Shown here in pieces: positions 10,583 through 63,398 of a stretch of DNA of 64,000 nt. How positions within the stretch are numbered: position 1 is the stretch's first letter; each line of letters opens with the position of its first letter. Below the pieces are notes generated by a model that worked only from the letters and a program-made list of their open reading frames with translations, was not told the DNA's origin and ran no database searches. Position numbers and translations under genes: made by a program. This stretch comes from Phycisphaerales bacterium (GTDB taxonomy: Bacteria; Planctomycetota; Phycisphaerae; Phycisphaerales; UBA1924). The DNA lies in assembly GCA_044221735.1 (NCBI GenBank), contig JBGAOP010000005.1:43608-107607 (forward strand), given 5' to 3'.

Positions 10583-10675
10583 GGGCCCGTCCGTGCCACT
10601 CTCCGGGAAATCGTGGGGGCGTTCGGGGCACGAATTGTGCCAATAACACAGTGGAACCATGGGTGATACCGGGGG

Positions 10676-46943: not shown

Positions 46944-46975
46944 GTACCCTTTGGGCAGTTTCGTTGGAGAATGCG

Positions 46976-49207
46976 ATGCCGTCTGTTGCTGTGCTCGCCG
47001 CGGTCCAAGCCCTGAACGGAGCCGTTGGCTCGGGCGGCGATCCGCTCGCGGTCCTGCGCTACTACCCCATGCAGGAGCCCATCGGCATCACGCAGGTGTA
47101 CGACGCGATGACGGGCGTCGCTGCGGGCGACTGGGTCGGTCCGGTGCGGCTTCGTGGCACGTACGGCCCCGCCGAGAACGACTCGCCCTCGTACGCGGTG
47201 GTGTTCTCACCCAACGGTCCCGCCCACTATGGAACGCTCAATGCCGGTCCGCAGGCGATGGCCGCGCTCGCGGGGCGCGGCCTGTTTGTCTGCGTGGCGA
47301 TCAAGCATGTGTCGAACGCCGACCGCGACACCATCCTCTCGTGCAGCGATCCGAGCGGGCAGGCGGGCTTTCGTATCGCGCTCAACCAAGGGAACATCGG
47401 CGAGTACAACAGCGGGGCCGAGAGCGCGATGTTCGGCTCGGCGCCGCCGGGCGCAAACGCCGGCTGCATCGGCATGTATGCCAAGGGCGATCTGCTGCTG
47501 GACAACCAATGGCACCTGCACATGTGGTACATGCGGGCTCCGGGCACGGTCAAGCACTGGATCGATGGGGTTCCCAAGCCGCTCTTCACCTCCGTGTTCG
47601 GTGATCAGAGCCCCTATCCGACGGCCGGGGCGCAGATGGTCGCGGGGGCGACGACGTTTGGCTACTACATCGATGCAACGCCCCAGAGCATGTACAACGG
47701 CGCGATGTCGGACCTCATCCTGATCGAGGGCGAGCCGACCCAGACCCAGCTGCGCGATCTGTGCCGGGCCATGTTTTACACGGTGCGCGGCATCCCCGGG
47801 GTGATCGCCCACTATCGGCCGGGTCCCGGCGGTGCGTTTGCGGACGTTGGGATGACCATTCCCGCGGTCGAGGGCGGCCCCATTCGTGCGCTCAAGGATC
47901 TCTCCGGCCACCACAATGATGCGAAGAACAACATCGCCAACAACGTTCCCACGCTCGAGCGATCCATAAACGGTGGGCGATGGACCGCCAGCTTCGACAA
48001 CTTCACCTCAAACTACAGCGAGTGGAATCCGCAGGGAGAGTGCCGCCAGCAGAGTTTGTCCGTGACGCCCTCCGCGGCGTCGAGGCTCGTCCAGACGCAC
48101 ATGGGCTGCCTGGTGAGCGCCCGGACGCTCGCGTCGTCGTGCTTCGCCAAGGAACAGGTTGTCGTCGGATTCACGACCGAGTTGGGCATCGAGTACAACG
48201 CGCTGGAGATTCGCAACGACGAGCCCTGCGTCGAGCGGGCCAACGGGTTCATCTTCGGCATGGACATTCCGAAGGTGCGGTGCCTGCCGGGGCTCGGCGT
48301 GTTCGGATTTACCTCAGGACTCCGAGGCGATCCCAGCGTCGGCGATGCCATGTTCGTGAACAACCGCTGGCAATCGCCGGCCACCTCCGCCTTCAATACC
48401 GGCACGGACGCCAGCCAGTACATCGAGCAGTGGAATCTCGCCCATCGGCCGGGACAGTACTACCCCGGGGGCGGGCAGCGAATGTGGTCCGGCTGGATCG
48501 ACGAGGTGATCATCACCAAGTGTCCTTATTTGCCCGAGGAAAGCGCGGCCTATGTCGCTCGCTCGTTCGCCGAAGCCGGCGAGCCGCTCAATCCGAAATA
48601 CCACGTGTGCGTCGTGGGCGACTCCATCGCGTCGGGCAATCGGAGTCTCAAGAGCCAAACCATGCTCGGCGGGGCGCTGCCGCTCGACGCGAGGCGATAC
48701 GCGTCGTTCACCAACGCGAGCATCGGTGGATTCCGCGTTCGCAGTTCCGCCGGGGCGTCGGTCTCGATGACCAGCCGAGGGCTGGACTCGCCCAAGTGGT
48801 GGGACCCCGGGGCTCGCAACGTCGCCGCCGTGGAGCTGGTCGTGAACGACGCCCTCGACAACGACGATCAGGCCACCTTCGCCGCCGACATCGACGCGCT
48901 GGTGCCGCAGCTTCGCGCGGGGGGAGCGAACGTCGTTGTGTGGAACGAAGAGACCAACAACTCGGCAGGTCCGGGCGACACGCCGCGAAACCTCGCGATC
49001 CGCAGCAGGCTCGAGACCGGCGCGATCAACCGAATCGTGACGCTCACGCCCATGCCGTGGAGCGGCTACGCGGCCGACGGCCTGCACCTCTTGCCCCCGG
49101 GACAGGCCATCTGGGCCGGGGATTGGTGGACGCAGGGCTTGGTGCCGTTCGTGCGACCGGGACTGCCCGACCCCACGCGATCCAAGCGCGACGTCGGCGA
49201 TCGATGA
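46976..49207 (+). CDS. two LamG/concanavalin-like lectin domains fused to an SGNH/GDSL hydrolase; no obvious signal peptide
   Basis: ATG at 46976. LamG-type ends 'WHLHMWYMRAPGTVKHWIDGV...GAMSDLILIEG' and 'WSGWIDEVIITK'. SGNH blocks 'VVGDSIASGN', 'LVVNDAL' and 'ADGLHL'. Confidence 0.7.
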   Translation: MPSVAVLAAVQALNGAVGSGGDPLAVLRYYPMQEPIGITQVYDAMTGVAAGDWVGPVRLRGTYGPAENDSPSYAVVFSPNGPAHYGTLNAGPQAMAALAGRGLFVCVAIKHVSNADRDTILSCSDPSGQAGFRIALNQGNIGEYNSGAESAMFGSAPPGANAGCIGMYAKGDLLLDNQWHLHMWYMRAPGTVKHWIDGVPKPLFTSVFGDQSPYPTAGAQMVAGATTFGYYIDATPQSMYNGAMSDLILIEGEPTQTQLRDLCRAMFYTVRGIPGVIAHYRPGPGGAFADVGMTIPAVEGGPIRALKDLSGHHNDAKNNIANNVPTLERSINGGRWTASFDNFTSNYSEWNPQGECRQQSLSVTPSAASRLVQTHMGCLVSARTLASSCFAKEQVVVGFTTELGIEYNALEIRNDEPCVERANGFIFGMDIPKVRCLPGLGVFGFTSGLRGDPSVGDAMFVNNRWQSPATSAFNTGTDASQYIEQWNLAHRPGQYYPGGGQRMWSGWIDEVIITKCPYLPEESAAYVARSFAEAGEPLNPKYHVCVVGDSIASGNRSLKSQTMLGGALPLDARRYASFTNASIGGFRVRSSAGASVSMTSRGLDSPKWWDPGARNVAAVELVVNDALDNDDQATFAADIDALVPQLRAGGANVVVWNEETNNSAGPGDTPRNLAIRSRLETGAINRIVTLTPMPWSGYAADGLHLLPPGQAIWAGDWWTQGLVPFVRPGLPDPTRSKRDVGDR

Positions 49208-49253: not shown

Positions 49254-50363
49254 ATGCACATCACCACACTCATCGTGCCGCTCGTGCTGACCGTCACCGG
49301 CGCACCGCCGGAGGCGCCCGCGGATGTCGCGGCGGGTCCGGAGACGGGCGTGTCGAAGGATCGCATCGCCGACACGATCCGGGCGCTGCCGACGAAGCGT
49401 TCGAGTTGGGGCGATGAGGCGCACGCCAAGGGCTTGCGGAAGACCGAGCAGATGCTCGCCGAGCGCCTGAAGGAACTCGGCTACACGCCCACGCTCGATC
49501 CGATCGACTTCATCGGCCACCGCGTCCACGACCACGAGGAGGCCGCCGAGAAGCCCTACAACAACATCATCATCGACCTGCCGGGCACCTCCGCCAAAGA
49601 CACCGTGCTCGTGCTCTCGGCCCACATGGACGCCGTGCCCGCCGCTCCGGGCGCCGATGACGACGGCTCGGGCGTGGCCGTGCTGCTCGAGGCCGCGCGG
49701 TTGCTGAAGGACAAGCCCATGCAGCGGTCGGTGCGGCTGATCCTGTTCAACCTTGAGGAGAACGGCCTCGTCGGCTCGCGGGCCTACACGCTGCGCATCA
49801 AGCCGCACCTAGACGCCGGCAAAGAGAAGATCGTCGGCATGATCTCGATGGACATGCTCGGGTTCTACTCCGACGCGGAGGGCAGCCAGAAGAGCCCGAT
49901 CCAGTCAATCGGTGCGTTCAAGTCTCCGACCGTCGGCGATTTCGTGGGCATGGCGGGGATCCTGCGCTTTCGACCCTTCAGCCAGGCGCTCGACAAGGCC
50001 ATGAAGGCGGGCGAGCCGCGCCTGAAGACGGTGGTGGTGGACTTCCTGCCCATCGCCCCGCCGGACATGCTCCGCTCCGACCACGCGCCGTTCATCGGCA
50101 TCGGCGTGCCCGCGGTGATCCTGTCCGATACCGCGAACTTTCGCAACCCCAACTACCACAAGGCCGGTGACACTTTCGAGACGCTCGATCTGGATCGCCT
50201 CACCATCGCCGCACGCGGCGTGATCGGCGGTGTGTACCGCCTCGCCGGGCCCCCGGGAACGGACCTCATCGATATCGCCCCACTCGGCCCCGCCCCCGCG
50301 CCGGCAAGCGAGCCCAAGAAGGAACCCACGGCCGAGCCGGCGACGGCTCCGAAGCAGCCCTGA
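49254..50363 (+). CDS. M28 family metallopeptidase (aminopeptidase-like), secreted
   Basis: Signal-like N-terminus. 'LSAHMDAVP...GADDDGSGVAVLLE', 'FNLEENGLVGS', 'SDHAPF'. Confidence 0.85.
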   Translation: MHITTLIVPLVLTVTGAPPEAPADVAAGPETGVSKDRIADTIRALPTKRSSWGDEAHAKGLRKTEQMLAERLKELGYTPTLDPIDFIGHRVHDHEEAAEKPYNNIIIDLPGTSAKDTVLVLSAHMDAVPAAPGADDDGSGVAVLLEAARLLKDKPMQRSVRLILFNLEENGLVGSRAYTLRIKPHLDAGKEKIVGMISMDMLGFYSDAEGSQKSPIQSIGAFKSPTVGDFVGMAGILRFRPFSQALDKAMKAGEPRLKTVVVDFLPIAPPDMLRSDHAPFIGIGVPAVILSDTANFRNPNYHKAGDTFETLDLDRLTIAARGVIGGVYRLAGPPGTDLIDIAPLGPAPAPASEPKKEPTAEPATAPKQP

Positions 50364-50393
50364 GACCGCTTTGGCCAAACAACGCCAATTGAA

Positions 50394-50421
50394 AAGGCCC
50401 CGGACAGATGTCCGGGGCCTT
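50394..50421. terminator. bidirectional terminator hairpin between convergent genes
   Basis: aaggccccgga-cagatg-tccggggcctt, flanked by gaaaa on the left and ttggtgtt on the right. Confidence 0.7.
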
Positions 50422-50447
50422 GGTGTTGATGCGTGGAGCGGGCGGGC

Positions 50448-53400
50448 TTAGTTGCAGCCGCCGGCGAACCAGGAGTTGAGGAAGTCGAAGATGTTCTGGA
50501 CCGCGAGGGTGCCGGTAGCGCCGTCGCCGCCGACGATCGCCGCCTTCTTGCCGGCGAACCAGTCGTTGAGGAAGTCGAAGATGTCCTGCACTTCAAGCTG
50601 CGTGTTGTGGTTGTAGTTGGCGTAGCAGCAGGGGCTGGTGATGTTGCCCAGCGTGCCGGGGACCGTCACCGGCGTGTTGCAGACCGTGGAGGTAGCGACG
50701 AACTTGGCCTGAGCGCCGACCGCGACGGTGTCGAGGGCGGCCGAGCAGGCCGCGGCATCGGCGAAGCCGGTGGCGCAGGTAGAGCCGCGGCAGCACACGC
50801 CCGAGGGCTGCGGGCAGGTGTTGGGGGTGCAGGTGCCGTTGACGACCAGGGTGCCCGTGGCGCAGGTCGCGCTGGGGTTGCCCGGGGTGGCGACGGTGCA
50901 GCTGCCGTTGGTCTGGCAGCAGACGCCAACCTGGTTGCAGGGGTTGGGCGTGCAGGTGCCGCCGGTGGTCCAGGTGCCGCCCGTGCAGGCGGACTGGATG
51001 ACGGTGGTGCACGTGGTGCCCACGCAGCAGACGCCGGTCGGGAAGAAGGTCGTGTTGACCGTGTTCCAGCCGCCGCCCGGGGTGAGACCGTACTGGGCGA
51101 TCATGACCTTGATCGTGGTGCCCGCGGTGGGGATGTTGACGTTGACGTCATACGGCTCGGGATCATCGAAGCAGCCGATCGACGTCAGCGCGTTGCAGGT
51201 GCCGGTGAAGATGGCCATGATCATGTCGTAGGTGCCGTAGTTGTCGACCTTGATGTTGAGGGTACCGGCGGCGGGGGCCGTGAAGGTGTACCAGATGGAG
51301 TTCTGGGCGCCGCCCGCGGTCTGATCGTTGCAGGTGCCGATCGGGAGGCCCTCGTTGGCCGCGCCCTCGGAGCCGACGTTGTTGGTGTAGGTGGGCGAGG
51401 TGATGGTGGCCGCGTTGGCGCAGTCATCGTTGACGGGCGTCTGCGTGAGGCAGGTGGGCGACGCGCAGGTCGTGTCGGCGCCGTTCCAGGTTCCGGTCAC
51501 GCCGGTGCAGAAGGACTGAAGCGTGACGAAGCACGTGCCGCTGCCGGGGAAGCAGCACGAGCCCGGGGGGCACTGCGTGGCCGGGGCCGCGCAGGTGCTG
51601 TTGACGCCGCCGTAGACGGCGGGGGAGGGGCAGCCCGCGGCGGAGGTGACGACGAAGCAGACAGCGCCGATGTCGCAGCAGGCGCCCGTGCCGGCGGGCT
51701 GGGTGACGACGATCGAGAAGGTGCTGTTATCGCCGGGGAAGCCGCCGGCGCGGATCAGGTAGGTCGTGCCGCTGACGAGCGAGTCGAGCAGTTCCGTGGT
51801 GACGCCGTTGGCCGCGCGGCCGACGCAGTCAAGATCGGTATCAACCGCCGGATCGCAGGCGCCGGTGAACAGGGCGATGGCGACGCCCCAGTCGCTGGGC
51901 GTGGCCGGGGTGACGGTGATGGAGTAGTTGCCGGTAACGGCCGGGGTGAAGTTGTACCAGACGTCAACCGTGGAGCCCGAGCAGCTCGTCAGGTCCGTGC
52001 CGGTGGCCGTGCCGATGTGGCCGGTGACCGCTGTGCCCACCGTGAGGGCGGTGCCGGGGCAAGCGTCGTTGGGCGGAGCCGTGCAGATGCCCTGCGTGGT
52101 GCAGGTGGAGCCCAGGTTCATGAACGTGCCGGTGCAGCCGGCCGCGGTCGTCTGGGTGCAGGCGAAGTTGGTCGTGTCGCAGCAAGCACCGACGCACGGC
52201 GGGGTGGTTGCCGAGCAGGTCGTGCCGTCACCCTGGTAGCCCGCCGCGGGGCAGCTCGCCGTGCCGCTGGGGCCGGTGATGAAGCAGGACGGACCGCTGC
52301 AGCACGCGCCGCTCGGGCACGGATTCGTCGGCGTGCAGACGGTCAGACCGCCGGGAGCCGGCGTGTTGAAGCCCGCCGGGGCGCCGGTGTAGACGCACTG
52401 GCCGATGTTGTTGGAGATCACGCAGCCGCCATTGCTGGGGTTGCAGCAGGCGATGGTGGTCACCGTGTCGGCGCGGATGCTGAACTTGGTCGTCGCCGGG
52501 CTGAAGTAAGCGACGCGGACGTAGTAGGACGTGCTGCCCGTGCTGGTGAAGATCGCGGTGCGCGGGTTGGTGAAGTCGGTGCAGACCAGTTCGCTGCCGC
52601 CCGCCGCGGGGCAGAAGCCGTCATACACGGACACGGCCAGGGACTGCATGGTGAAGTCGCCGGCGCTGGCCTCCGGGGTCGCGGTGATCTGGTACTGAAC
52701 GCCGGTCGTGGCCGGGGTCGTGAGCAGGTACCACACGTCGGTGGTGGTGAAGCTGCAGGGCGTGACGACCGTCTGCGTGGCCGACACAAGAACCTGGCCC
52801 GTCAGCGTCGCGCCGCCGGGGGTGATCGTGAAGGCGGTGAGGTCGCCCGAGCACTCGTCGTTGGCCGGGGCCGGGAGCTGCGAACAGGTGATACCGGTGC
52901 ATGTCGTGCCCGTCTGGAGCACCTGGGTGCCCGGGCACGTGGTCGCGCCCGCGATCACGGTGCACACGCCGGTGGTGTTGTTGCAGCAGACGATCGTGTT
53001 GCAGGGGTCGCCGGTGCAGGTCGTGAGGCCCGTCAGTGCGGTGCCGCCGGACTTGGCGCAGTTGGCCGCGCCGTCCGCCACGAAGCAGACCGCCGCGGCG
53101 GTGCCGGGCACGCAGCAGGCGATGGGGGTGGTCGCCGCGACCGGGTGGCCGAGGACCTTGATGTAGTACGAACCGTTGTTGGGCGAGGCGAGGCCGAAGG
53201 GGCCGCGCTCAACGGGGGTGAGGTCGGTGTCGTACCGCCAGTAGTAGTTGAAGCTGGTGTCGGGGCCCGTGCCGGCGCGCCAGCCGAGCATCACGGTGGG
53301 GCCCGTGGCGACGTCCTGGTCGGAGATGCCGATGGCGAAGGAGCCGCCGCCGGCGTTGAGGTACGCGAAGCCCATATTCAGCGGGACGTTCTCCATGCCC

Positions 53401-53975
53401 GCGATCGGATTCACGCCGTCGCCGACGGTGAGAACGGTGAACACGCTCGCGCCCGTGGGGTTGGCGAGGGTCGGCACCGTGCCGACGAGCACGGGCGGGG
53501 TGTCGATCTCGTTGGTGCCCCACGTCGCGGGGTTGATGTCCAGGGGGGTCCACCAGATCTTGACGTTGCCCGCGAGGGCGCCGGCCTTGATGTGAACGCC
53601 GACCTGCACCTGGCAGACGCTGATCATCTGGGTCGTGATGCCGCCGACCTGCAGACGCGTGCCGGGGATGTTCACGTCGTCCATGAGCACGTCGCCCTGA
53701 ACGCCGGTGCCGCTCACGCCGCCAAGGCCGGAAGCGACGGTAAAGGTGCCGAGGGTGGTGCGGTCATAGAGCGTGGTGCCGCCGCGCGGCTGGAACGGGC
53801 CGGGCAGTACGGGCGGCGCGATCATGCGCATCGGGCCGACCAACGGAAGCTGATACTCGGCGGATGTCGCATCCACGGTCTGCGCGCTGGCCACGGCCGC
53901 GAGCGAAAGGCCGGCCGTGATGGCCGCGCCAGCGATCGCTCGGCGACACTGTGCACCGGAACGGAAAACGCTCAT
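50448..53975 (-). CDS. giant secreted Cys-rich mosaic protein, paralog A (N-domain + 10 six-Cys 'CC' modules + 3 'NDxC...DVWY' beta-sandwich-like domains + GC-terminated dockerin-like tag)
   Basis: ATG at 53975 preceded by GAGGAGG (cagaggaggtttcgaATG). Signal peptide MSVFRSGAQCRRAIAGAAITAGLSLAAVASAQ. C-terminus '...LEVQDIFDFLNDWFAGKKAAIVGGDGATGTLAVQNIFDFLNSWFAGGCN*'. The antisense 1257-aa ORF is a shadow. Confidence 0.85.
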   Translation of the reverse strand: MSVFRSGAQCRRAIAGAAITAGLSLAAVASAQTVDATSAEYQLPLVGPMRMIAPPVLPGPFQPRGGTTLYDRTTLGTFTVASGLGGVSGTGVQGDVLMDDVNIPGTRLQVGGITTQMISVCQVQVGVHIKAGALAGNVKIWWTPLDINPATWGTNEIDTPPVLVGTVPTLANPTGASVFTVLTVGDGVNPIAGMENVPLNMGFAYLNAGGGSFAIGISDQDVATGPTVMLGWRAGTGPDTSFNYYWRYDTDLTPVERGPFGLASPNNGSYYIKVLGHPVAATTPIACCVPGTAAAVCFVADGAANCAKSGGTALTGLTTCTGDPCNTIVCCNNTTGVCTVIAGATTCPGTQVLQTGTTCTGITCSQLPAPANDECSGDLTAFTITPGGATLTGQVLVSATQTVVTPCSFTTTDVWYLLTTPATTGVQYQITATPEASAGDFTMQSLAVSVYDGFCPAAGGSELVCTDFTNPRTAIFTSTGSTSYYVRVAYFSPATTKFSIRADTVTTIACCNPSNGGCVISNNIGQCVYTGAPAGFNTPAPGGLTVCTPTNPCPSGACCSGPSCFITGPSGTASCPAAGYQGDGTTCSATTPPCVGACCDTTNFACTQTTAAGCTGTFMNLGSTCTTQGICTAPPNDACPGTALTVGTAVTGHIGTATGTDLTSCSGSTVDVWYNFTPAVTGNYSITVTPATPSDWGVAIALFTGACDPAVDTDLDCVGRAANGVTTELLDSLVSGTTYLIRAGGFPGDNSTFSIVVTQPAGTGACCDIGAVCFVVTSAAGCPSPAVYGGVNSTCAAPATQCPPGSCCFPGSGTCFVTLQSFCTGVTGTWNGADTTCASPTCLTQTPVNDDCANAATITSPTYTNNVGSEGAANEGLPIGTCNDQTAGGAQNSIWYTFTAPAAGTLNIKVDNYGTYDMIMAIFTGTCNALTSIGCFDDPEPYDVNVNIPTAGTTIKVMIAQYGLTPGGGWNTVNTTFFPTGVCCVGTTCTTVIQSACTGGTWTTGGTCTPNPCNQVGVCCQTNGSCTVATPGNPSATCATGTLVVNGTCTPNTCPQPSGVCCRGSTCATGFADAAACSAALDTVAVGAQAKFVATSTVCNTPVTVPGTLGNITSPCCYANYNHNTQLEVQDIFDFLNDWFAGKKAAIVGGDGATGTLAVQNIFDFLNSWFAGGCN

Positions 53976-54257
53976 TCGAAACCTCCTCTGTGCGCGCCAT
54001 CTTGGGTCGCGCAAATGAATGCCCGGCGTGAACGGGCACGCTGCTGCGCTCTTCCCGACTCGGATTCGAGCGGTTCACCAGCGGCGCCACAAGCGCCGAG
54101 AGCGCATCGCCCAATGTACTTCGAGTTCGCAGGAATCCAACATGGGCGCGCGGAATCGAGCACGCGAGACAAAAGGTGCGCGAAAACCCTTCAGTGTTTT
54201 TACTGACATTGATTCGTGGCGCGGGAAAATCAACAGGGAAATCCCGCAAACACAACG

Positions 54258-54287
54258 AAAAACCCCCGTCATGAGACGGGGGTTTTT
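54258..54287. terminator. bidirectional rho-independent terminator downstream of paralog B
   Basis: aaaaacccccgtc-atga-gacgggggttttt: a 9-bp G/C-rich stem flanked by an A-run and a T-run, 29 nt after the stop of the 54316..57750 gene. Confidence 0.75.
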
Positions 54288-54315
54288 GTTGAGAGGGTTT
54301 TCCAGTATGTTTCGA

Positions 54316-57300
54316 CTAGTGGCAGCCAGCGAGCCAGTCGTTGATGAAGTCGAAGATGTTCTGCACGGCCAGTGGGCCCGAGGTGCCGTTGCCGCCGGTG
54401 TTCGCGAAGATCGAGCCGGCGAGCCAGTCGTTGATGAAGTCAAAGATGTCCTGAACCTCGATGCCGTTGACTTTGTTGTAGTCGGCGTGGCAGCAGCCCG
54501 CGATGGTCGTGCCCGTGCAGGTGCTCGAGGCGGTCTGGAAGAACGCTCCGGCGAGTGTGCCGGTGGTGGTGCAGTTGGCCTGCGTGACGGCTGCGTTGCA
54601 CGTGGCGCCGCGGCAGCAGATGCCCGTGGCCACCGGGCAGGTGTTGACGGTGCAGGTGCCGCCGCTGGTCCACGTGCCCGTGCACAGGGCCTGGGTCGTC
54701 ACGGTGCACGCGCCGGAGATGCAGCACTGGCCGGTGAGCGAGAAGGTGGTGTTCACCGTGAGCCAGCCGCCGCCTGGATTGAGGCCCCACTGGGCGATCA
54801 TGAACTTCACGTTCGCGCCGACGGGCATGTTGACGTTGATGTCGTAGGGCTCGGGATCATCGACGCAGCCGATCTCGGTCAGCGTGCCGCACGCGCCCGT
54901 GAACACGCCCATGACCATGTCGTAGGTGCCGTAGTTGTCGGCCTTGATGTTGAGCACGCCCGCGGCCGGCGCGGTGAAGGTGTACCAGACGGAGTTCTGC
55001 GCGCCCGCGGCGGTCTGGTCGTTGCACGCGCTGATGGGCAGACCCTCGTTGGCCGCGCCGTCGGTGCCGGTGTTGTCGGTGAACGTGGGCGATGTGACGA
55101 CCGTGGCGGTGGAGCAGTCGTCGTTGGGGGGCGTCTGTGCGACGCAGTTGGTGGTGGCGCAGGCCTGATCGCCCGCGTTCCAGACGCCGGTGACGCCGGT
55201 GCAGAATGTCTGGATGGTCACGAAGCACTGCCCGCTGCGCGGGAAGCAGCACGAGCCCGCCGGGCACTGGGTGGCCGGCGCGGCACAGGTCGTGTTCACG
55301 CCGCGGTAGACGGCGGGTGCGGGGCAATCGGCCGCGGCGGCGACGATGAGGCACGCCGCGCCGATGTCGCAGCACGCGCCCAGGCCCGCGGGCTGGGAGA
55401 CAAGGATGGAGAAGTTGCCGGTATCGCCGGCGAAGGCGCCCACGCGGATGAGCACGGGCGTGCCGGCGATGAGGGTGTCGAGGAGCTCGCTGGTGCCGCC
55501 GACCGCCGCCTGCGGGATGCAGTCGATGTCGGTGTCAACAGTGGGATCGCACGTGCCGGTGAAGATCGCCAGGCCCGTGCCGACGTCGGTGGCCGAGGCG
55601 GGCGTGGTCTTGATGCTGTAGTTGCCGGTGGTCGTTGGGGTGAAGGTGTACCAGACGTCGACGGTGGAGCCCGAGCAGGACGTCAGGTCTGTGCCGGTGG
55701 CGGAGTTGACGGTGCCGTTGACGGCCGTGCCGAGGGTGAGCGCGACGGCCGCGGAGCACTGGTCGTTGGGCGGGCCGGGGCAGATGCCCTGGGTGGTGCA
55801 GGCCGAGCCGCCACCGCCATAGGTGCCGCCAGCCGCGGTGCAATCGCCGTCGCTGTTGATGGTGCAGGCAAAGCCGGTGGGGCGGCAGCAGGCGCCTTGG
55901 CAGAGGTTGGGGGTGCAGGTTCCGCCAAGGGTAAAGCTGGCGGCGGGGCAGCCGGTCTGGCCGGTAATGCTGCAGACACCGTTGGCAGCGCAGCACGCGC
56001 CGCGCGGGCAGGCCGTCGGGGTGCAGGTGGTTCCGGGTCCCTGCGAGTCGGTGTACCCCGGCTGGGTGGTGCAGCCCACCGCGGTGGTGGACGCGACGCA
56101 GAGGCCGTTGGTCGGATTGCAGCACGCGATGGTCGTAATCTGCGAGATGGAGATGTTGAACTTCGTCGTGCCCGGAGTGAAGTACGCGACGCGGATGTAG
56201 TAGGAAAGCGATCCGTTGGCCTGGAAGGTCGCCACGCGCGGATTCGAGAAGTCGGTGCAGACCAGCTCACCGCCGACGGCGCCGGGGCATCCCGGGCCGC
56301 CGTCGTACACGGCGATCGAGAGCGGCTGGAGCGTGTAATCACCGGACGTTGCCTGCGGTGTCGCGACGATCTGGAACTGGCCGGTCGACTGCGCGGCCGT
56401 GGCGGTGAAGAGGTACCACACGTCGGTGTCGGCAAAGGTGCACGCGGGAGAGGCGCCGGCGCCGAACGACGGTGTGGCACCCACGATCGTCTGGTCGATC
56501 CGGGTCGGATTGCCGGGGATGGTCAGCTCATAGGCGGAGCCGACTGTGGCGGCGGAGCATTCGTCGTTGCCGGGGGCCGGCAGCTGCGTGCAGGTGATGC
56601 CCGTGCAGGAGGTCGCGCCGGCCTGGAGCACTTGTGTGCCCGGGCACGCGGCCTGGCCCGCGATCACCGAGCACACGCCAGTGGTGTTGTTGCAGCAGGT
56701 GATCGTCGCGCAGGTGGCCGCGCCGCACGTGGTCTGGCCGGCGATGGCGTTGCCGCCGGACGCGGCACAGTTGGCCGTTCCGTCGGCAACGAAGCACACG
56801 GAGCCCGCCGTTGCCGGGAGGCAGCACGCGATCGGGGCCACGGCCGCGATCGGCGTTCCCTTGATGATGACATAGAAGGACGACGCGGCGGGCGTGCACG
56901 GTTGCGGGGCGCACCCGAACGCGAAGGGGCCCGTCTCCGGACCCACCGGGCAATCGGGCTGTGCCGGCACGGGGCCGAGATCGGAGTCATAGACCCAGAA
57001 GAAGTTGCCGTTGGCGTCGGGGCCCGTGGTGATTCGCCAGCCGCCGATGTTGGCGTCGTCGGGACGCATGATCTGCGCGCCGATGGCAAATGTGCCGAAC
57101 GTGGCGGGGCCGGTTCCCTGCAGATACGTCATGTTCAGCGGGATCGCGTTCATGCCGGCGATCGGGTTCACGCCATCGCCGATGGTCACGATCTTCGTGC
57201 TGCTGGCCGCCGCGGTGGGAATCGTCACCGTTCCGATGAGATGCATCGGAGTGTCCACCGCGGTGTCTGGAGCGGTCGTGTTGCTGGTGAGGCTTGCCCA

Positions 57301-57750
57301 GTACAGATTGACATCGACCGGCGCCGCGCCCACGAAGGTGTAGATGCCCACCGTCACCTGGCACACGCTAATCATCTGCGTGGCGGTGCCGTTGACTTGG
57401 AGGCGGGCCACGGGAATCGGCACATCCTCAACAAAGATGTCGGGCTGGGTGCCTGCGCCGTCGGGGCATCCGCCGTAGCCGAAGTTGCCGGTGATATTGC
57501 CGGAAAGCGTGTTCCGGTTGTACAGCGTCACCGAGCCGCGCGGCGTGAAGGGGCCGGGCACCGTCGGCGGCTCGGGAAGTCGCATGAAGGGCGACTCGAC
57601 AAACTGCCGGTGGTGCGCGGGAATCGCCGCGGGCTCGGCCGGGGGTTCGGCCAGAACCGTCGCGGCCATCGATGCGAGGAACAGGGCGGCCAGCGCCGTC
57701 CAGGCGAACCTGCTCTCAGTCCGCCACGCGAAGTTGTTACAACCGCTCAT
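54316..57750 (-). CDS. giant secreted Cys-rich mosaic protein, paralog B (same architecture as paralog A)
   Basis: ATG at 57750 in the same context (ttgaggaggtttcgaATG). Signal-like 'FAWTALAALFLASMAATVLA'. Collinear with paralog A. C-terminus '...IEVQDIFDFINDWLAGSIFANTGGNGTSGPLAVQNIFDFINDWLAGCH*'. Confidence 0.85.
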   Translation of the reverse strand: MSGCNNFAWRTESRFAWTALAALFLASMAATVLAEPPAEPAAIPAHHRQFVESPFMRLPEPPTVPGPFTPRGSVTLYNRNTLSGNITGNFGYGGCPDGAGTQPDIFVEDVPIPVARLQVNGTATQMISVCQVTVGIYTFVGAAPVDVNLYWASLTSNTTAPDTAVDTPMHLIGTVTIPTAAASSTKIVTIGDGVNPIAGMNAIPLNMTYLQGTGPATFGTFAIGAQIMRPDDANIGGWRITTGPDANGNFFWVYDSDLGPVPAQPDCPVGPETGPFAFGCAPQPCTPAASSFYVIIKGTPIAAVAPIACCLPATAGSVCFVADGTANCAASGGNAIAGQTTCGAATCATITCCNNTTGVCSVIAGQAACPGTQVLQAGATSCTGITCTQLPAPGNDECSAATVGSAYELTIPGNPTRIDQTIVGATPSFGAGASPACTFADTDVWYLFTATAAQSTGQFQIVATPQATSGDYTLQPLSIAVYDGGPGCPGAVGGELVCTDFSNPRVATFQANGSLSYYIRVAYFTPGTTKFNISISQITTIACCNPTNGLCVASTTAVGCTTQPGYTDSQGPGTTCTPTACPRGACCAANGVCSITGQTGCPAASFTLGGTCTPNLCQGACCRPTGFACTINSDGDCTAAGGTYGGGGSACTTQGICPGPPNDQCSAAVALTLGTAVNGTVNSATGTDLTSCSGSTVDVWYTFTPTTTGNYSIKTTPASATDVGTGLAIFTGTCDPTVDTDIDCIPQAAVGGTSELLDTLIAGTPVLIRVGAFAGDTGNFSILVSQPAGLGACCDIGAACLIVAAAADCPAPAVYRGVNTTCAAPATQCPAGSCCFPRSGQCFVTIQTFCTGVTGVWNAGDQACATTNCVAQTPPNDDCSTATVVTSPTFTDNTGTDGAANEGLPISACNDQTAAGAQNSVWYTFTAPAAGVLNIKADNYGTYDMVMGVFTGACGTLTEIGCVDDPEPYDINVNMPVGANVKFMIAQWGLNPGGGWLTVNTTFSLTGQCCISGACTVTTQALCTGTWTSGGTCTVNTCPVATGICCRGATCNAAVTQANCTTTGTLAGAFFQTASSTCTGTTIAGCCHADYNKVNGIEVQDIFDFINDWLAGSIFANTGGNGTSGPLAVQNIFDFINDWLAGCH

Positions 57751-58186
57751 TCGAAACCTCCTCAATCGCGCGGCGTGTGCGGCCGCGCTTCCCGCCCCGG
57801 TTGACCGTCTTTTCTCGGTTACTTGGACACCATGACCAACGAACCCGGGCTGACTTTGTGGAGCCGTGCAGACATTGCGCGGATTCCTCGGTGAAATTAC
57901 CACAAACCAAACATTCAGGCAATACCCTTATTTTCAGATTGGTCCAATGCGCAAATTTATCCGTGGTAACCCCGACGGTTGCTATCCGTCCCTCCGGATC
58001 AAGGGGTTGCGAAGTTGGGATGAAACCGAGGCGGCGAACTCCGGGCGCAAATCCCGCCGGAAAGAAGGCTGGGTGAACGATTCGGGCCGCACAGCGCTCG
58101 TGCCGGCGCGAAATCGATTGCAGCCGGCCAGGCTCGCCTTCCAGAAGAACTATGTCGCACCGGGCCTGCCGCGCGGCGGTGTGGGA

Positions 58187-59575
58187 TCAGCAGCCGGCAA
58201 ACCAGCGGTTCAGGAACTCGAAGATGTCCTGAACTTCCAGCACCCCGCTGGCGTCAGCGTCGGCGCTGGACAGGCCCGCGAGCCAGTCGTTGATGAACTG
58301 AAAGATGTCCTCGACTTGGACCCGCCCGTTCTCGTCCTGATCGGCCGCGCAGTACGAGATCGTCGCGACGTACGCAAACGTGAGGCCGGTGGCGATGGTG
58401 GTGGCGGTGCCGGTGATGGTGCGGCCGTCATAAGTGATGGCCGTGGCGGTGTCGAGGCGGACGCCCTCGGGCACGCGGCCGTCGAGCCGATCGGCGAGGC
58501 GAGACATGCCCCAGCGCGGCGTCCAGACGAAGGCCTCGGTCACCCCGCCGGCGGAAAGCGTGCCGGAGGTTTGGCTGTCGCCCACGATAATGGTTCCATC
58601 GGCGCTGACGCCGAAGGCCTCGGAAGTTTGCGCGCCGGATGAAGGGAGCGCGCCGAGCGAGCGCGTGCCAGCGGGCGTCGAACGGAACGCAACAGCCTGC
58701 GGAATCGCGAATCCCAGCGAGGAGTCGGTCAGATCCGGGCTGGTGATGGCGCCGACGATCACGTTCCCGGAAGTGTTTACGCCGCTCGCGATGCCAAAGC
58801 CATCCGGTGCGTGGGCGATCGCGGGGATCTGCACGGTCGTGCCCGCGCCGCCGGTGTTCGTCCACTTGAAGGGCAGGCCGGCCGAGTCGCCGACAATCAC
58901 GATGGCGTTGTACGAAGAGGCCCGTGCGCTGGAGGCGCCGCTGCCCGGGAGCGCAGGGAGCATTGTGAAGCCGGTCCCGCCATTCCAGCGGAAGGCCTGA
59001 CCGACCGCGCTGGTGGCCGTCGTGCTCGAACCGAAGATCGTTCCGCCGTCGCCCGAGATGCCGTAGGCGAAACTGGTGCCGAGATTGCCGGGTGGCGAGC
59101 CCGCGATGCCGAGGGATGAGGGCGTGGACCCGAACCACATGAACGCACGGCTGCGGTTGCCGGTGTTCGCGCCGACCGTCACCGATTGGACGCTGTGGCC
59201 CACGGAGATCGCGCCATCGGCGCAGATGCCCGTGGCGTGCGATGAGAACGCCGCGGCGTTGAGCGCTCCGAACGCGCCGACGCCCCCGCCGAGCAGGTCG
59301 TAGCGAAACCCCTCCTCCAGCGCACCGCCCAGCGTGTTGGCGGAATCCGAATCACCAACGACATACTGCCCAAAGCCCGCGATGAACGCGGCGTTGTTGC
59401 CGCTCGCGCCACCCGTGAGGGTGGGGATCATTGTGAACGAGACCTGGGCCGAGGCGACACTCCCCCATCCACACCCCCCCACTCCCGCGCACGCCATCGC
59501 AACGCCAAGAGCCAGTGCACGAGCACAGGCGCCCGGGCGAGGCCCGAGAAAGAGCGAAGAATCGGCGTGGTGCAC
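58187..59575 (-). CDS. secreted HAF-family extracellular repeat protein with GC-terminated dockerin-like tag
   Basis: GTG start at 59575 with AAGGAG 7 nt upstream. Repeats of the type 'A.G.S.DG..IVG.S......AF.W' ('AYGISGDGGTIFGSS...QAFRW', 'AFGVSADGTIIVGDS...EAFVW'). C-terminus '...VQVEDIFQFINDWLAGLSSADADASGVLEVQDIFEFLNRWFAGC*'. Confidence 0.8.
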   Translation of the reverse strand: MHHADSSLFLGPRPGACARALALGVAMACAGVGGCGWGSVASAQVSFTMIPTLTGGASGNNAAFIAGFGQYVVGDSDSANTLGGALEEGFRYDLLGGGVGAFGALNAAAFSSHATGICADGAISVGHSVQSVTVGANTGNRSRAFMWFGSTPSSLGIAGSPPGNLGTSFAYGISGDGGTIFGSSTTATSAVGQAFRWNGGTGFTMLPALPGSGASSARASSYNAIVIVGDSAGLPFKWTNTGGAGTTVQIPAIAHAPDGFGIASGVNTSGNVIVGAITSPDLTDSSLGFAIPQAVAFRSTPAGTRSLGALPSSGAQTSEAFGVSADGTIIVGDSQTSGTLSAGGVTEAFVWTPRWGMSRLADRLDGRVPEGVRLDTATAITYDGRTITGTATTIATGLTFAYVATISYCAADQDENGRVQVEDIFQFINDWLAGLSSADADASGVLEVQDIFEFLNRWFAGC

Positions 59576-59637: not shown

Positions 59638-62600
59638 TCAACACCCGGCAAACCAGGCCGACAGGTAGGAGAAGATATCCGAGACCGCAAGTCCGGGAAT
59701 GCCGTCAAAGTCGGTCGAGGGGTCGCCGGCAAACCAGGCGCCCAGATAATCAAAGATGTCCTGCACGGTGAGACCGCCCACGCCGTTGAAATCAACGCGG
59801 CAGCGGAACTCGGCGGTGATCGTCTCGGCGGTGGAGACGGTGAACGAGCAGGGGCCCGTGCCCGAGCAGGGCCCGCCGCTCCAGCCGATGAACCGGGAGT
59901 TCTGCGCCGCAACAGCCGTGAGCGTGATTGGCGATCCGACGGCGAAGAGCCCGTCGCACGTTGCTCCGCAGTCGATGCCGCCGGGCGAGCTTGTGACCAC
60001 GCCGGTGCCGGAGCCGGTGGTGAGGATCGTGATCGCCACGGGCGGAAGCGGGCACGGGCTGGGCGTGCACGACACGCCGTCGCCCTGGTACGAGCCGGTG
60101 CACGATCCGGGCAGCACGACGGTGCAATCACCGTTGGAGACATTACAGCACGCGCCCGCCATGGAGACCGGGGGCGTGCACGTCGAGATGCTCTGGGGCG
60201 TGATGACCAGCGACCAGGCCCGCGCTGTGCCGGTGCCGCCGGAGACCACATCGGCCACGTTGAGCGTCCACGTGCCGGTGGGGTCCTCGCCGTTGAAGGC
60301 CGAGAGCGGGCTGGCCGGGCTGAAGGTGCCGGTGAAGGGTGCGCTCGACGCGGCGACAGTCTGGATGGACGTTGCGCCTGAATCGTCGAGGACGGTATTG
60401 CACAGGTTGTTGCCGCTGTTGCCGCCCGTCGCGCCGCCGCCGGTCATGCGATTGATGAGCGTGACGGTGGTGCCGAGCGGGCTGGTGAGCTTGACGATCA
60501 GTTGGCCGATGGTGCCGTGGTTGAGGCCGACGGTGGTCGACGTCGACGTCGTCGAGCAACTCGACCCGTCGAAGCGGAAGTTGAGGTCGGCGATCGTGCC
60601 CACGCCCGACACGGGGAGGAGCAGGTTGACGCCGGCGGCGGAGTTGTCGGTGATCGCCGTGGCCGCGCCGGTGTAGGAGATGGTGACGGGCGTGCTCGAG
60701 CTCGTCACGCCGGTGGGAAGCGCCACGGCCAGCGCGGCGGTGGCGCCGATGGTTCCACCCACGCCCTGGTCGCAGGACATGGTCAGGGTGAGGCTGATCG
60801 GGTTGCCGCACGGGTGCGTTGGCGACACGCTGAGCACGTAGTACGAGTCGTTGCTGCCGGTGGCGAGCGCGGCGAGTGTGGGGAAGGACGAGACGCCGGA
60901 CACGACCGTCACGGTGGGCGTGTTGGACGTCAGGGTGCCGCTCACGCCGGTGGCGGAAAGCGAGCCCGAGTTGGTCACGGGAATGGTCAGACGGATCTGG
61001 TTCTCGCCCGGATCGATGCGCCCGTTGGCGTTGCCGTTGCCCACAGTGTCGGCGAGCACGACCGAGCCGCCGAAGGCGAAGTTCACCGCCGGAATCGAGG
61101 GAACGATGGTGAAGTTGGCGTTGGAGATGTCAAAGAAGATGTTGCCCACGGCCTCGACCTTGATGCGGGCGGTGGTGGTGTTGATGTTGGGCAGGACGAT
61201 GTTCGCCGTGCCCGTGTTGGGCGTGCTCGCGGCAAGGACTGTGGGAAAGGTGTTGCCCCCGTCGGTGGACAACGAGATCTTCACGTTTGCGCAGCTCACG
61301 GGCGCGACGTTGGATCCGCCGAGCGCCCAGGTGAGCGTCTGCGGGCCGCTGTACGTTCCGGCGGTGTTGAGGCTGGTAATCTGGAACGGGCCGGTGCCGG
61401 CGATCTGGAGCGTGGTGGTGGCCTGGTTCACGCCGCCCCCGCCGGAGCGATTGTCGCGCACCGTGACGCGCCAGTTCATGGTGGTGCGGGCGACCTGCGG
61501 CAGGAGTTCCCAGGTGTCGGTCGTGTTGGCGAGGATAGTGGAGAGTTGCGGGACGGTACGCGAGGGGCTGGCCGTTCCCGGGCGTGAGCGGTCGATCGGG
61601 CCCGAGCCGGGATCGGTGCCCAGGGGCTGCACACTCGCGCCGTCCTGCTGCTCCCAGCAGTACGTGATCGGGTCGCCGTCGGGGTCTGTGGCCGAGGCCG
61701 TGAGCGTGAAGGGCGTCTTGGAGGGAATGGCGTACGCCGTGAGCGCGCCGATGGTCGGTGCGTTGTTGCCCGTCGCGGTCGTCGCGGCACAGGATGTGCC
61801 ACTCAGGTACGTGTTGATCTGGTTGATGTCGGTGCCGTTGAAGTACGGGTCGTTGTGGGCCTGCACGTTGTACGAGGCCCCACATATCCCGGCGTAGGAC
61901 ATGATGGTCGTGCCCGAGCCCGCCTCGACGAGGTACACGGCGCTGTCGCCGGCCGAGCCGCCGCAGTTGCTCTGCGTGTGGTGGCCGCCGAACTGGTGGC
62001 CAAGCTCGTGCGAGACGTAGTCGATCACGAAGTACGGGTCGTTGGGGTTGGAGTAGCCGCTGTACCCGGCCCCCTTGGTGGAAGCGCAGATGGTTCCGAT
62101 GCCGCCCGCGAGGCCGTTGTTGCCGGCGGTGGTGTAGTGGATGACGTGGCCCACGTCGTAGTTGGCGCTGCCGATCACCGAATCGAGCGCGGTCTGAAGG
62201 TTCGAGTTGGTCGTGCTCGCGTTGTTGGGCGAGGTGAAAGGATCGGTCGCGGAGTCGGTGTAGACGATCGCCGTTTCGTTGGCCACAAGCACGAAGCGGA
62301 CAGTCAGCTCGACCTCGTAGATGCCGTTGAGCTGGTTGGTGATGTTCGTCGCGAGTGTCAGCCCCGCCGCCGCGCCGCCCGCCCACACCGTCGTCTCGCC
62401 CGTGAGCGCCAGCGCGAGCCGGTACTGCCGGCGCGTGGGACCGGTGACGGAGCGCGGCTGGAACGGCGCGGCCTGAACGGCCGGCCCGTTGTCCACCGTG
62501 AGGCAGTTGAACGAGCGATCACGCTTGGGGCCGTCGGCGTGCCGGTACGACATGTGCAGCGATGTGTCGCCGCGCGAATAGGCGTCGATATGCCACATCC

Positions 62601-63102
62601 CCGAGTACGGGCCCGTGTCGCCGGACGTGCGCACCTGGGCCTGGAAGCCCACGGGCGTGAGGCTGCACCGGATGGTCGCGAACGGATCGTCGATGCCCTC
62701 GCCGCGATAGGTGCGTATCTCCGGGTGCGCGGCCGCGAGTGCGGGCTCCATCACCGAGTACTCAACAACCTTGAACCGCTGCCAGTGGCCGTCGGGGTCC
62801 GGCAGGGCGATCACGAGCGGATCGGTCTGGGCCCGACGTGTGTCCTCCAGCGGCGCGCCGGCGAGGACATCCCGCATGGCGCGAACATCGAGCGTCGCGG
62901 GCACACCGTGCGCCGGGCGCACCCATTCCTCGCGCTGGGCCGCGGCCGCGGGCACGCCGTCGAGGATGGACCACGGGCCGACCGCGTCGATCACCTGCTG
63001 CGCGGCGGCGGAAGCGGCCATGAGCGCGACGGCCGCGCCGGTGGTGAGAAGTGAGCGAATCAAGCGCCCGCACGTGCTGTTGTCAATCGAGAGGCTCGTC
63101 AT
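59638..63102 (-). CDS. secreted reprolysin-like (M12B/metzincin) zinc metalloprotease + proprotein-convertase P-domain + six-Cys module + InlB-B-repeat-like domain + GC-terminated dockerin-like tag
   Basis: ATG at 63102 with GAGGA upstream. Signal 'LLTTGAAVALMAASAAAQQ'. Zinc site 'HELGHQFGGHH' with Met-turn 'IMSY'. P-domain end 'GTWTLNVADVVSGGTGTARAWSLVI'. C-terminus '...LTVQDIFDYLGAWFAGDPSTDFDGIPGLAVSDIFSYLSAWFAGC*'. Confidence 0.88.
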   Translation of the reverse strand: MTSLSIDNSTCGRLIRSLLTTGAAVALMAASAAAQQVIDAVGPWSILDGVPAAAAQREEWVRPAHGVPATLDVRAMRDVLAGAPLEDTRRAQTDPLVIALPDPDGHWQRFKVVEYSVMEPALAAAHPEIRTYRGEGIDDPFATIRCSLTPVGFQAQVRTSGDTGPYSGMWHIDAYSRGDTSLHMSYRHADGPKRDRSFNCLTVDNGPAVQAAPFQPRSVTGPTRRQYRLALALTGETTVWAGGAAAGLTLATNITNQLNGIYEVELTVRFVLVANETAIVYTDSATDPFTSPNNASTTNSNLQTALDSVIGSANYDVGHVIHYTTAGNNGLAGGIGTICASTKGAGYSGYSNPNDPYFVIDYVSHELGHQFGGHHTQSNCGGSAGDSAVYLVEAGSGTTIMSYAGICGASYNVQAHNDPYFNGTDINQINTYLSGTSCAATTATGNNAPTIGALTAYAIPSKTPFTLTASATDPDGDPITYCWEQQDGASVQPLGTDPGSGPIDRSRPGTASPSRTVPQLSTILANTTDTWELLPQVARTTMNWRVTVRDNRSGGGGVNQATTTLQIAGTGPFQITSLNTAGTYSGPQTLTWALGGSNVAPVSCANVKISLSTDGGNTFPTVLAASTPNTGTANIVLPNINTTTARIKVEAVGNIFFDISNANFTIVPSIPAVNFAFGGSVVLADTVGNGNANGRIDPGENQIRLTIPVTNSGSLSATGVSGTLTSNTPTVTVVSGVSSFPTLAALATGSNDSYYVLSVSPTHPCGNPISLTLTMSCDQGVGGTIGATAALAVALPTGVTSSSTPVTISYTGAATAITDNSAAGVNLLLPVSGVGTIADLNFRFDGSSCSTTSTSTTVGLNHGTIGQLIVKLTSPLGTTVTLINRMTGGGATGGNSGNNLCNTVLDDSGATSIQTVAASSAPFTGTFSPASPLSAFNGEDPTGTWTLNVADVVSGGTGTARAWSLVITPQSISTCTPPVSMAGACCNVSNGDCTVVLPGSCTGSYQGDGVSCTPSPCPLPPVAITILTTGSGTGVVTSSPGGIDCGATCDGLFAVGSPITLTAVAAQNSRFIGWSGGPCSGTGPCSFTVSTAETITAEFRCRVDFNGVGGLTVQDIFDYLGAWFAGDPSTDFDGIPGLAVSDIFSYLSAWFAGC

Positions 63103-63398
63103 GGAATCCTCGTCTTTCAGGCGTCCCATAACCAGATCGGTGCGACGCCCACCCCTTCGCCCCATGCTCGAACATGCCACGGTGAAGCGTCGGAATGACA
63201 CAATCACCCAAGATGCACGCGAAGTGACGCGGCACCAACAACTCGCATCCAGAAACGGATGGAATGCTCCACGATACGAGTTGCGCGGATTGAGTGTTCC
63301 GAGGACATGAAGCGGAGCAGCGGCCCGCTAATGGCCACGTATGGCCGAGGAACTTAGGCGGATTGCCCATCTCGCCGCGTGCGCGCGAGCGCCAGGGT

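Follow-up and report, generated by a model that had tools for sequence, protein, structure and literature searches.

Old tandem duplication of a probable cysteine-rich surface protein gene with a dockerin-like tag in Phycisphaerales

In the Phycisphaerae, a hypothetical cohesin-dockerin complex named the 'planctosome' has been built on Pfam cohesin and dockerin matches in the family Nemodlikiaceae, with dockerin-tagged M12B reprolysin-like peptidases and P-domains (Andrei et al. 2019, PMC6461901). Here we analysed a stretch of 64 kb from a Phycisphaerales bacterium (hereafter the window), which is of high GC content (66–72%) and whose closest database relatives are metagenome-assembled Phycisphaerales genomes, and we focused on two adjacent minus-strand genes, gene A (50448..53975, 1175 aa, identical to database protein P0001) and gene B (54316..57750, 1144 aa, identical to database protein P0004). 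As in the planctosome, the gene two upstream of B encodes an M12B reprolysin-like peptidase that has a P-domain and a C-terminal tag, of a kind which A and B also carry; unlike in the planctosome, proteins resembling A and B are not part of that model, and no cohesin was found in the ten window open reading frames (ORFs) that were scanned. With a probability of roughly 0.6, we read A and B as the two products of an old tandem duplication, encoding large, secreted, non-catalytic, disulfide-rich surface binding proteins that are separately transcribed and later became specialised.

Individual parts of A and B can be compared with further known families. GBD2 and GBD3, two of three related domains in each protein, match Pfam PF23759 (GBD_T9SS_assoc, galactose-binding domain-like) at 72.3 bits in A and 63.4 bits in B, in two stretches each and above the gathering threshold of 27 bits, while GBD1 matches weakly (23.1 bits, below that threshold). 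A and B differ from that family in carrying three such domains per protein, in their planctomycete host and in having a GC-type tag instead of a type IX secretion system (T9SS) C-terminal domain; a literature search for PF23759 found nothing. The tag resembles type I cellulosome dockerins (PF00404) in its duplicated ~22-residue segment, in which a 12-residue D-x-N-x-x-G-x-[LI]-x-x-x-D loop is followed by a helix, in its C-terminal position on apparently secreted modular proteins and in its modelled order of helix, short helix and helix. It differs from them in that loop positions 5 and 9 are mostly non-acidic and a conserved Cys pair brackets it. Compared with NCBIfam family NF041540, the tag of A and B has two VQDIFDFLxxWFAG repeats, ends in Gly-Cys and aligns column by column with the tags of the neighbouring proteins that pass the curated cutoff of that family. 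Unlike them, A and B fall below the cutoff, have 'PCC-Y-A-D/N-Y-N' before loop 1 and have a 3-residue insertion and Asn in place of Asp in loop 2. Lastly, uncharacterised PEP-CTERM or T9SS C-terminal domain proteins (P0012, P0015, P0022, P0029; P0016, P0017, P0025) have a homologous N-domain of ~210–250 aa after the signal peptide (E 1e-19 to 1e-4) and, like A and B, a C-terminal sorting or anchoring tag; unlike A and B, they are short (240–700 aa), without CC modules or GBDs, and use other anchoring systems.

Tandem duplication and divergence of A and B

The minus-strand ORFs span 50448-54014 (A) and 54316-57903 (B), and the starts were assigned to the ATGs at 53975 and 57750 because the 19-mer GAGGAGGTTTCGAATGAGC sits at both. 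A first-pass annotation of the window had reported 19 identical nucleotides around the two start codons, and this exact 19-mer was indeed found with 2 occurrences in the window (53970-53988 and 57745-57763, minus strand; chance expectation 0). In A, it consists of the Shine-Dalgarno motif GAGGAGG, a 6-nt spacer directly 5' of the start codon and ATG AGC, and is conserved in orthologues; the motif of B is identical. Both genes are intact and have one stop codon each, at the end. In BLASTP, A and B align in a single collinear high-scoring segment pair (1036 bits, 637/1222 identical, 52%), and in their codon alignment 57% of amino acids and 68% of nucleotides are identical (32% of nucleotides differ). 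The previously described collinear tandem pair, with long stretches well over half identical by eye, is thus confirmed, and what had been observed proved right wherever it was checked. A and B are tandem paralogues from gene duplication, with a full-length homology well beyond composition. Low complexity had been considered as a trivial source of the similarity, and it does not account for a single collinear alignment over the full length of copies that differ this much. The signal peptides of A and B are 25% identical, and no similarity of their upstream DNA was evident outside the 19-mer when the sequences were read by eye, without direct alignment; both had been described as diverged.

Full-length relatives of A and B number 10 among 5.8 billion clustered proteins, and those named are all from Phycisphaerales. 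Orthologues of A and B are 58–73% identical. GatB, reprolysin, HAF, B, A and M28 follow one another in this order in L001 (GCA_035325225.1) and L002 (JGI 3300049436) as well, and the B-A tandem is present in four independent assemblies, namely L001, L004 and L005 (the latter two, whose flanks are less complete, belong to the same species as L001 or to one close to it) and L002. In two genomes that are more distant, L003 (GCA_035546115.1) and a JGI contig, the syntenic position is occupied by a single gene. Neighbour-joining analysis separated the A orthologues, the B orthologues and the single-copy genes into three clades, all with 100% bootstrap support, whereas A and B of the window group together in 0% of replicates. 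Because the B-A synteny is shared and the A and B clades are separate, the duplication is old and stably inherited, and predates the split of the three species. The A/B homology and these clades agree with the earlier description of a duplicated and diverging gene pair. The single-copy clade joins B in 92% of the bootstrap replicates, and the last CC module and the tag of the single-copy genes look B-like, on which grounds B is probably the conservative copy and A the derived one.

The variation mechanism that had been proposed for the pair found no such backing: gene conversion and concerted evolution were ruled out by sliding windows, exact-run lengths and the bootstrapped trees, and there was no sign of cassette switching or another such mechanism in the windows or runs. 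In sliding 80-codon windows, the identity between A and B is nowhere above the orthologue identity, and exact matches between A and B reach at most 25 nt, which is no more than in cross-genome paralogue pairs; at the resolution of these two comparisons, gene conversion is excluded. The start motif AGGAGGTTTCGAATGA also occurs in the B genes of L001 and L002 and in the single-copy gene of L003, whereas the A genes of L001 and L002 carry it with two or three changes. Because orthologues and a single-copy gene have retained it, the motif is an ancestral translation-initiation region under purifying selection, and a recent event or conversion tract was ruled out as the source of the 19-nt identity. 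Strong Shine-Dalgarno motifs of the GAGGAGG type are rare among the genes of the window. We also observed the conserved motif AGGAGGTTTCGAATG in L002 (near 6158 and 9962) and L003 (near 2453), 40–70 nt upstream of the annotated gene starts; the public gene calls there probably start too far downstream, with truncated N-termini in which part of the signal peptide is lost.

To compare rates by domain, the ratios of non-synonymous to synonymous substitution rates (dN/dS) were estimated by the approximate Nei-Gojobori method, and these are rough values given that a GC content at third codon positions (GC3) of 0.90–0.94 compresses dS. Outside the short signal-peptide region, dN/dS is <1 in all orthologue comparisons, from 0.12–0.19 in the most constrained parts (B tag and CC6-7) to 0.62–0.76 in the B N-domain, pointing to purifying selection on the orthologues outside this region. 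Between species (BLASTP), the N-domain of B is 34–44% identical and the rest of the protein 67–73%, and the corresponding values for A are 54–64% and 56–76%. The asymmetry in B was reproduced by an independent multiple alignment, and suggests that B has a fast-evolving distal tip. When A is compared with B, the N-domain is the most diverged part (45%), with 64–72% identity in GBD2, GBD3 and the CC blocks 1-2 and 6-7, a pattern that fits the ligand-specificity expansion suggested by the first-pass annotation.

Modules, N-domain and C-terminal tag

As that annotation had claimed, A and B share one domain order: signal peptide, N-domain, CC1-2, GBD1, CC3-5, GBD2, CC6-7, GBD3, a last CC block and the GC-type tag (all on the minus strand). 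Signal-peptide-like segments were judged by eye, with residues 1-32 in A. The N-domain, all-beta in A and fast-evolving between species in B, covers residues 33-285 of A (53121..53879) and residues 35-307 of B (56830..57648). In A, it is followed by CC modules 1-2 (52881..53120), by a region (51036..52880) containing GBD1 (52452-52880), CC3-5 (52080-52451), GBD2 (51687-52079), CC6-7 (51447-51686) and GBD3 (51036-51446), by CC modules 8-10 (50625..51035) and by the tag, which has two loop-helix repeats and ends GGCN (50451..50630). In B, the corresponding parts are CC modules 1-2 (56587..56829), a region (54733..56586) containing GBD1 (56128-56586), CC3-5 (55777-56127), GBD2 (55381-55776), CC6-7 (55141-55380) and GBD3 (54733-55140), CC modules 8-9 (54490..54732) and the tag ending GCH (54319..54495).

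There are 10 CC modules in A (2+3+2+3) and 9 in B (2+3+2+2; CC9 is missing and the last module is shorter), each of 30–44 aa with six Cys and the consensus G-x-C-C...G-x-C...C...G-x-T-C...C, and they match no Pfam or NCBIfam family at E<=10. CC9 (50776-50933, A residues about 1015-1067) was seen in no gene other than A of the window, L001, L004 and L005, being absent from A of L002, all B copies and the single-copy genes, and it looks like a lineage-specific gain of one CC module. All three GBDs are 130–150 aa long and share NDxC at the N-terminus and the motif D-[VI]-W-Y-x-F at the centre. Apart from those in the signal peptide and the N-domain, all Cys residues fall in even sets (six per CC module, four per GBD and two bracketing the tag). 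The totals of 60 (A) or 54 (B) in the CC modules, 12 in the three GBDs and 2 bracketing the tag would fit full disulfide pairing. Both proteins are rich in Thr (14–16%), Gly (12%) and Cys (6.5%), with <4% of Lys, Arg, Glu and His together and 4–5% Asp, and GC3 is 0.93–0.94 in A (the highest of the window's real genes) and 0.88–0.90 in B. The low content of these charged residues and the high GC3 fit protease-resistant, possibly highly expressed extracellular proteins. A different combination was seen in P0018 (479 aa), which has an N-domain, two short 'DTDDLVALITTWGPCP' repeats, one CC module and a GBD-like domain, and because of which the modules of A and B appear to be shuffled independently in other organisms.

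The N-domain, of about 250–270 aa in A and B, has no match in Pfam or NCBIfam at E<=10. By an exhaustive phmmer search of 1.84 billion representatives, we found 36 proteins with this domain at E<=1e-3, 6 of them at E<=1e-10, and in nearly all 36 the match starts within about the first 70 residues, after a short leader. These proteins end in PEP-CTERM or T9SS Por_Secre_tail sequences, found in phyla other than Planctomycetota, or in dockerin-like C-termini, with P0018 ending instead in its CC and GBD-like parts; this argues for the N-domain being an exposed module on proteins sorted to the cell surface, and it is mainly because of these fusions that A and B are likely to be displayed on the surface. 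An AlphaFold2 model from a 35-sequence alignment is confidently all-beta, with 12 strands, a predicted local distance difference test score (pLDDT) of 82.6 and a predicted template modelling score of 0.80. Weak fold matches in PDB and BFVD, with template modelling (TM) scores of at most 0.36–0.38, included viral jelly-roll capsids, CBM6/35, the Cwp84 lectin-like domain, phage tail proteins and collagen-like C-terminal domains. As all PDB and BFVD matches had TM scores <=0.38, no family was given to the fold, and a known sequence family was likewise rejected, a match in the PDB sequence search being spurious and Pfam and NCBIfam being blank. From the model, the N-domain is read as a jelly-roll-like beta-sandwich of an undescribed family.

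The tag comprises the last 60 residues, with two VQ[DN]IFDF[LI]NxW[FL]AG loop-helix repeats, and ends in Gly-Cys. NF041540 scores above its cutoff in the two upstream neighbours (40.1 bits in the HAF-repeat protein and 30.9 bits in the reprolysin-like protein). Five tags in the window were aligned and have 13 invariant columns, and a profile of eight tags retrieved 249 database proteins, mostly contig-end fragments. Among the 120 matches listed of these 249, the NCBI name 'GC-type dockerin domain-anchored protein' is borne by 3, two from Phycisphaerales and one from a metagenome-assembled genome (MAG) labelled Rugosimonospora. P0107, a tag-bearing fragment labelled as a Rugosimonospora (Actinomycetota) MAG, probably reflects wrong binning and not a genuine presence of the tag beyond the Planctomycetota. 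Two tag subtypes can be distinguished, the canonical C-x-A-D-F-N-G-x-G-G-L-x-V-Q-D... and the A/B subtype P-C-C-Y-A-D-Y-N-K..., which has a longer second loop. Among 85 aligned tags, the terminal Cys never varies and the one immediately preceding loop 1 has a conservation of at least 90%, which suggests that this pair forms a disulfide closing the tag. A model of A residues 1015-1175 has two 12-residue helices with a short one between them (pLDDT about 90), and weak EF-hand_6 matches were found in 2 of 8 tags (E 0.0024). Assignment as a classical dockerin was rejected, with the PDB profile search, Pfam and Foldseek of the 161-aa model all negative, and a literature search for 'GC-type dockerin' found nothing. 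Of the 'dockerin-like tag' in the first-pass annotation, the repeats ending in Gly-Cys and the NCBIfam resemblance hold, and these searches gave no match to Dockerin_1 or to solved dockerins; 'dockerin' is here a nominal label that follows the NCBIfam name and denotes a resemblance.

Transcription signals and neighbouring genes

An intrinsic-terminator-like hairpin lies 3' of B (A5C5GTCTCATGACG5T5; 54258..54287, minus strand), with a 13-bp stem followed by a T run, and is kept in three other assemblies (L001, L004 and L002) representing two species. The strong terminator that had been noted between the two genes is therefore present and conserved, and only its description as bidirectional has no obvious meaning, the genes on both sides sharing one strand. 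After A, a GC-rich 10-bp hairpin with T4 (50392..50419, no strand assigned) is located between A and the convergent M28 peptidase gene. Its sequence is GGCCCCGGAC-AUCU-GUCCGGGGCC followed by UUUU, and the 106-nt stretch around it (50350-50455) has a folding z of -4.9. This hairpin has A/T runs on both sides, and the M28 peptidase gene ends at 50363; it may terminate both A and the M28 peptidase gene as a plausible bidirectional terminator, unlike that of B.

Alignment of the B-A spacer from three species revealed a conserved TTGG[AC]T, 16–17 nt and TA[CG]A[TG]T about 135 nt upstream of the ATG of A. In the window, this candidate promoter of A, read from the alignment, is TTGGAT, 16 nt and TACATT (54113..54140, minus strand), with the equivalents TTGGCT/TAGATT in L001 and TTGGCT/TAGAGT in L002. 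The candidate promoter of B, read in the same way, is TTGCCT, 17 nt and TAATTT (57894..57922, minus strand), in a 34-nt block that is near-identical in L001 and recognisable in L003 (TTGGCC/TATATT). Both can be taken as putative sigma-70-like promoters. Given a terminator for each gene and conserved promoter-like motifs upstream of both, A and B are likely separate transcription units, as had been proposed. A regulatory RNA in the intergenic regions was rejected as a candidate, since the Rfam matches were all sub-threshold and set off by the terminator hairpin.

Upstream of B are an HAF-repeat protein gene with the same tag (58187..59575, minus strand; dockerin_GC, 40.1 bits; HAF_rpt) and a gene for a reprolysin-like M12B metallopeptidase with a P-domain, one CC module, a Flg_new_2 domain and the same tag (59638..63207, minus strand). 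The HAF-repeat gene encodes 431–462 aa in the window, L002, L003 and the JGI single-copy contig, and the gene at its position in the L001/L004 lineage encodes only 136 aa (L001 5419-5829; L004 125-535), which by position may be a truncated HAF remnant. A fifth tag-bearing protein of the window (7832-10675, minus strand, 947 aa) ends in ...VQDIFDYLNAWFFGCP and has weak beta-propeller-like Pfam matches; because it carries the tag, the GC-type tag is not confined to the four-gene cluster. On the other side of the pair, a plus-strand ORF of 791 aa (46832-49207) has good codon bias and no Pfam match. At its position, L002 and the JGI single-copy contig have 742-aa genes with weak GDSL-lipase matches, and because L001 and L003 have no gene there, the position is a variable insertion beside the cluster.

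Competing explanations and meaning for Phycisphaerales surfaces

We infer export, disulfide bonding, surface anchoring, a binding function and promoters for A and B as follows. The two proteins would be exported via their Sec signal peptides and would fold outside the cytoplasm into a disulfide-stapled chain, in which the CC modules could serve as stiff spacers. Ligands would be bound by the three galactose-binding-like, beta-sandwich GBDs of the PF23759 type and by the N-domain, which is jelly-roll-like and would form the distal end. The C-terminal tag, with its two EF-hand-like loop-helix repeats and terminal Cys, would hold them on the cell surface, a tag type apparently common to A, B, the HAF-repeat neighbour and the reprolysin-like protease. 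A and B would be transcribed separately, each retaining the strong ancestral Shine-Dalgarno/start region. After the duplication, A would have come to differ in its last CC module and its tag subtype, evolving evenly along its length, and B would have kept an ancestral-looking C-terminal half under strong constraint, with an N-terminal tip changing rapidly between species. Such a pattern would be expected of a tip that contacts a ligand which itself varies, or that phage or grazers attack.

Several observations weigh against parts of this reading. The A and B tags score 18.7 and 17.1 bits for NF041540, under its 29-bit curated cutoff, and have no match to Pfam Dockerin_1 at E<=10. Solved dockerins were matched neither by the tag profile against PDB sequences nor by Foldseek of the 161-aa model, and a cohesin is missing from the ten larger ORFs scanned against Pfam in the 64-kb window. 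Foldseek of the N-domain model against PDB returned nothing at E<=1e-3, with TM scores of at most 0.36. The grouping of B with the single-copy genes (92%) could be a rate artefact, with A lost in those genomes, evolution faster in A, or genomes that predate the duplication. In addition, the dN/dS of the B N-domain is <1, which could mean relaxed rather than diversifying evolution.

Among other explanations, A and B could be substrate-targeting subunits of an extracellular, 'planctosome'-like cohesin-dockerin complex, docked beside the tagged reprolysin-like protease and bringing it polymeric substrate. Four consecutive genes (reprolysin with P-domain, HAF, B and A) do bear the same tag, in a cluster that is syntenic in at least five assemblies, and the combination of dockerin-tagged M12B reprolysin-like peptidases, P-domains and cohesins has been proposed for Phycisphaerae (PMC6461901). 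We consider this explanation unlikely, however, as the scanned ORFs lack a cohesin, Dockerin_1 does not recognise the tag, the 'planctosome' is itself a hypothetical model, and the separate terminators or promoters do not fit one operon, at least for B and A. It also appears improbable that A and B are structural envelope proteins of a cysteine-cross-linked surface layer or wall, held together by disulfides between the CC modules of different molecules. Planctomycetota do have cysteine-rich envelope proteins, Cys is very high and charged residues are very low in A and B, and the strong Shine-Dalgarno motif and the GC3 of A hint at high expression; yet Cys numbers that are even and fixed per module fit intramolecular pairing, three recognisable binding-type beta-sandwich domains are present, the tip domain of B is hypervariable, and a family with so few full-length homologues would be unusual for an essential envelope component.

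The tandem arrangement of homologues with an identical 19-nt start region, along with the strong variability of the B N-domain between species, might instead recall an antigenic or phase-variation system, in which one copy acts as a donor or expression is switched. We regard this as very improbable: the searched windows and exact runs contain no conversion tracts, reciprocal monophyly of A and B holds across three species, the ancestral 19-mer occurs in a single-copy gene as well, both copies are intact with their own promoter-like and terminator elements, and no invertible repeats or simple-sequence tracts were noticed at the starts on reading the sequence, without a repeat search. That the duplication is a mis-expanded repeat in the assembly is solely an a priori risk in metagenome-assembled genomes, and it was refuted by the same B-A arrangement having been assembled independently four times and by copies that share only 68% of nucleotides and differ in length and module number. 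We also considered a bolder extension of the favoured reading of A and B as duplicated surface binding proteins. Here the N-domain would be a new jelly-roll-like ligand-recognition tip family across phyla, anchored by each phylum's own system (PEP-CTERM, T9SS or GC-type tag), the GC-type tag a disulfide-clamped anchor defining a Phycisphaerales display system, and the B tip under diversifying selection from an antagonist or a variable substrate. As a whole, this extension is doubtful.

A and B belong to a familiar class, that of modular, C-terminally anchored bacterial surface proteins, and their duplication is ordinary, but two of their module families, the N-domain and the CC module, are undescribed. 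The Phycisphaerales are abundant and mostly uncultured planctomycetes, of which the cell-surface biology is almost unknown. On the favoured reading, the locus would provide a dated example of surface-protein diversification, with duplication followed by asymmetric evolution, in which stalk and anchor are conserved and the tip changes fast. Three unstudied building blocks are marked out as well, namely the N-domain and the six-cysteine spacer, which have no families, and the GC-type tag, which has an NCBIfam model only, and it is from these that the anchoring system and the ligands could be defined.

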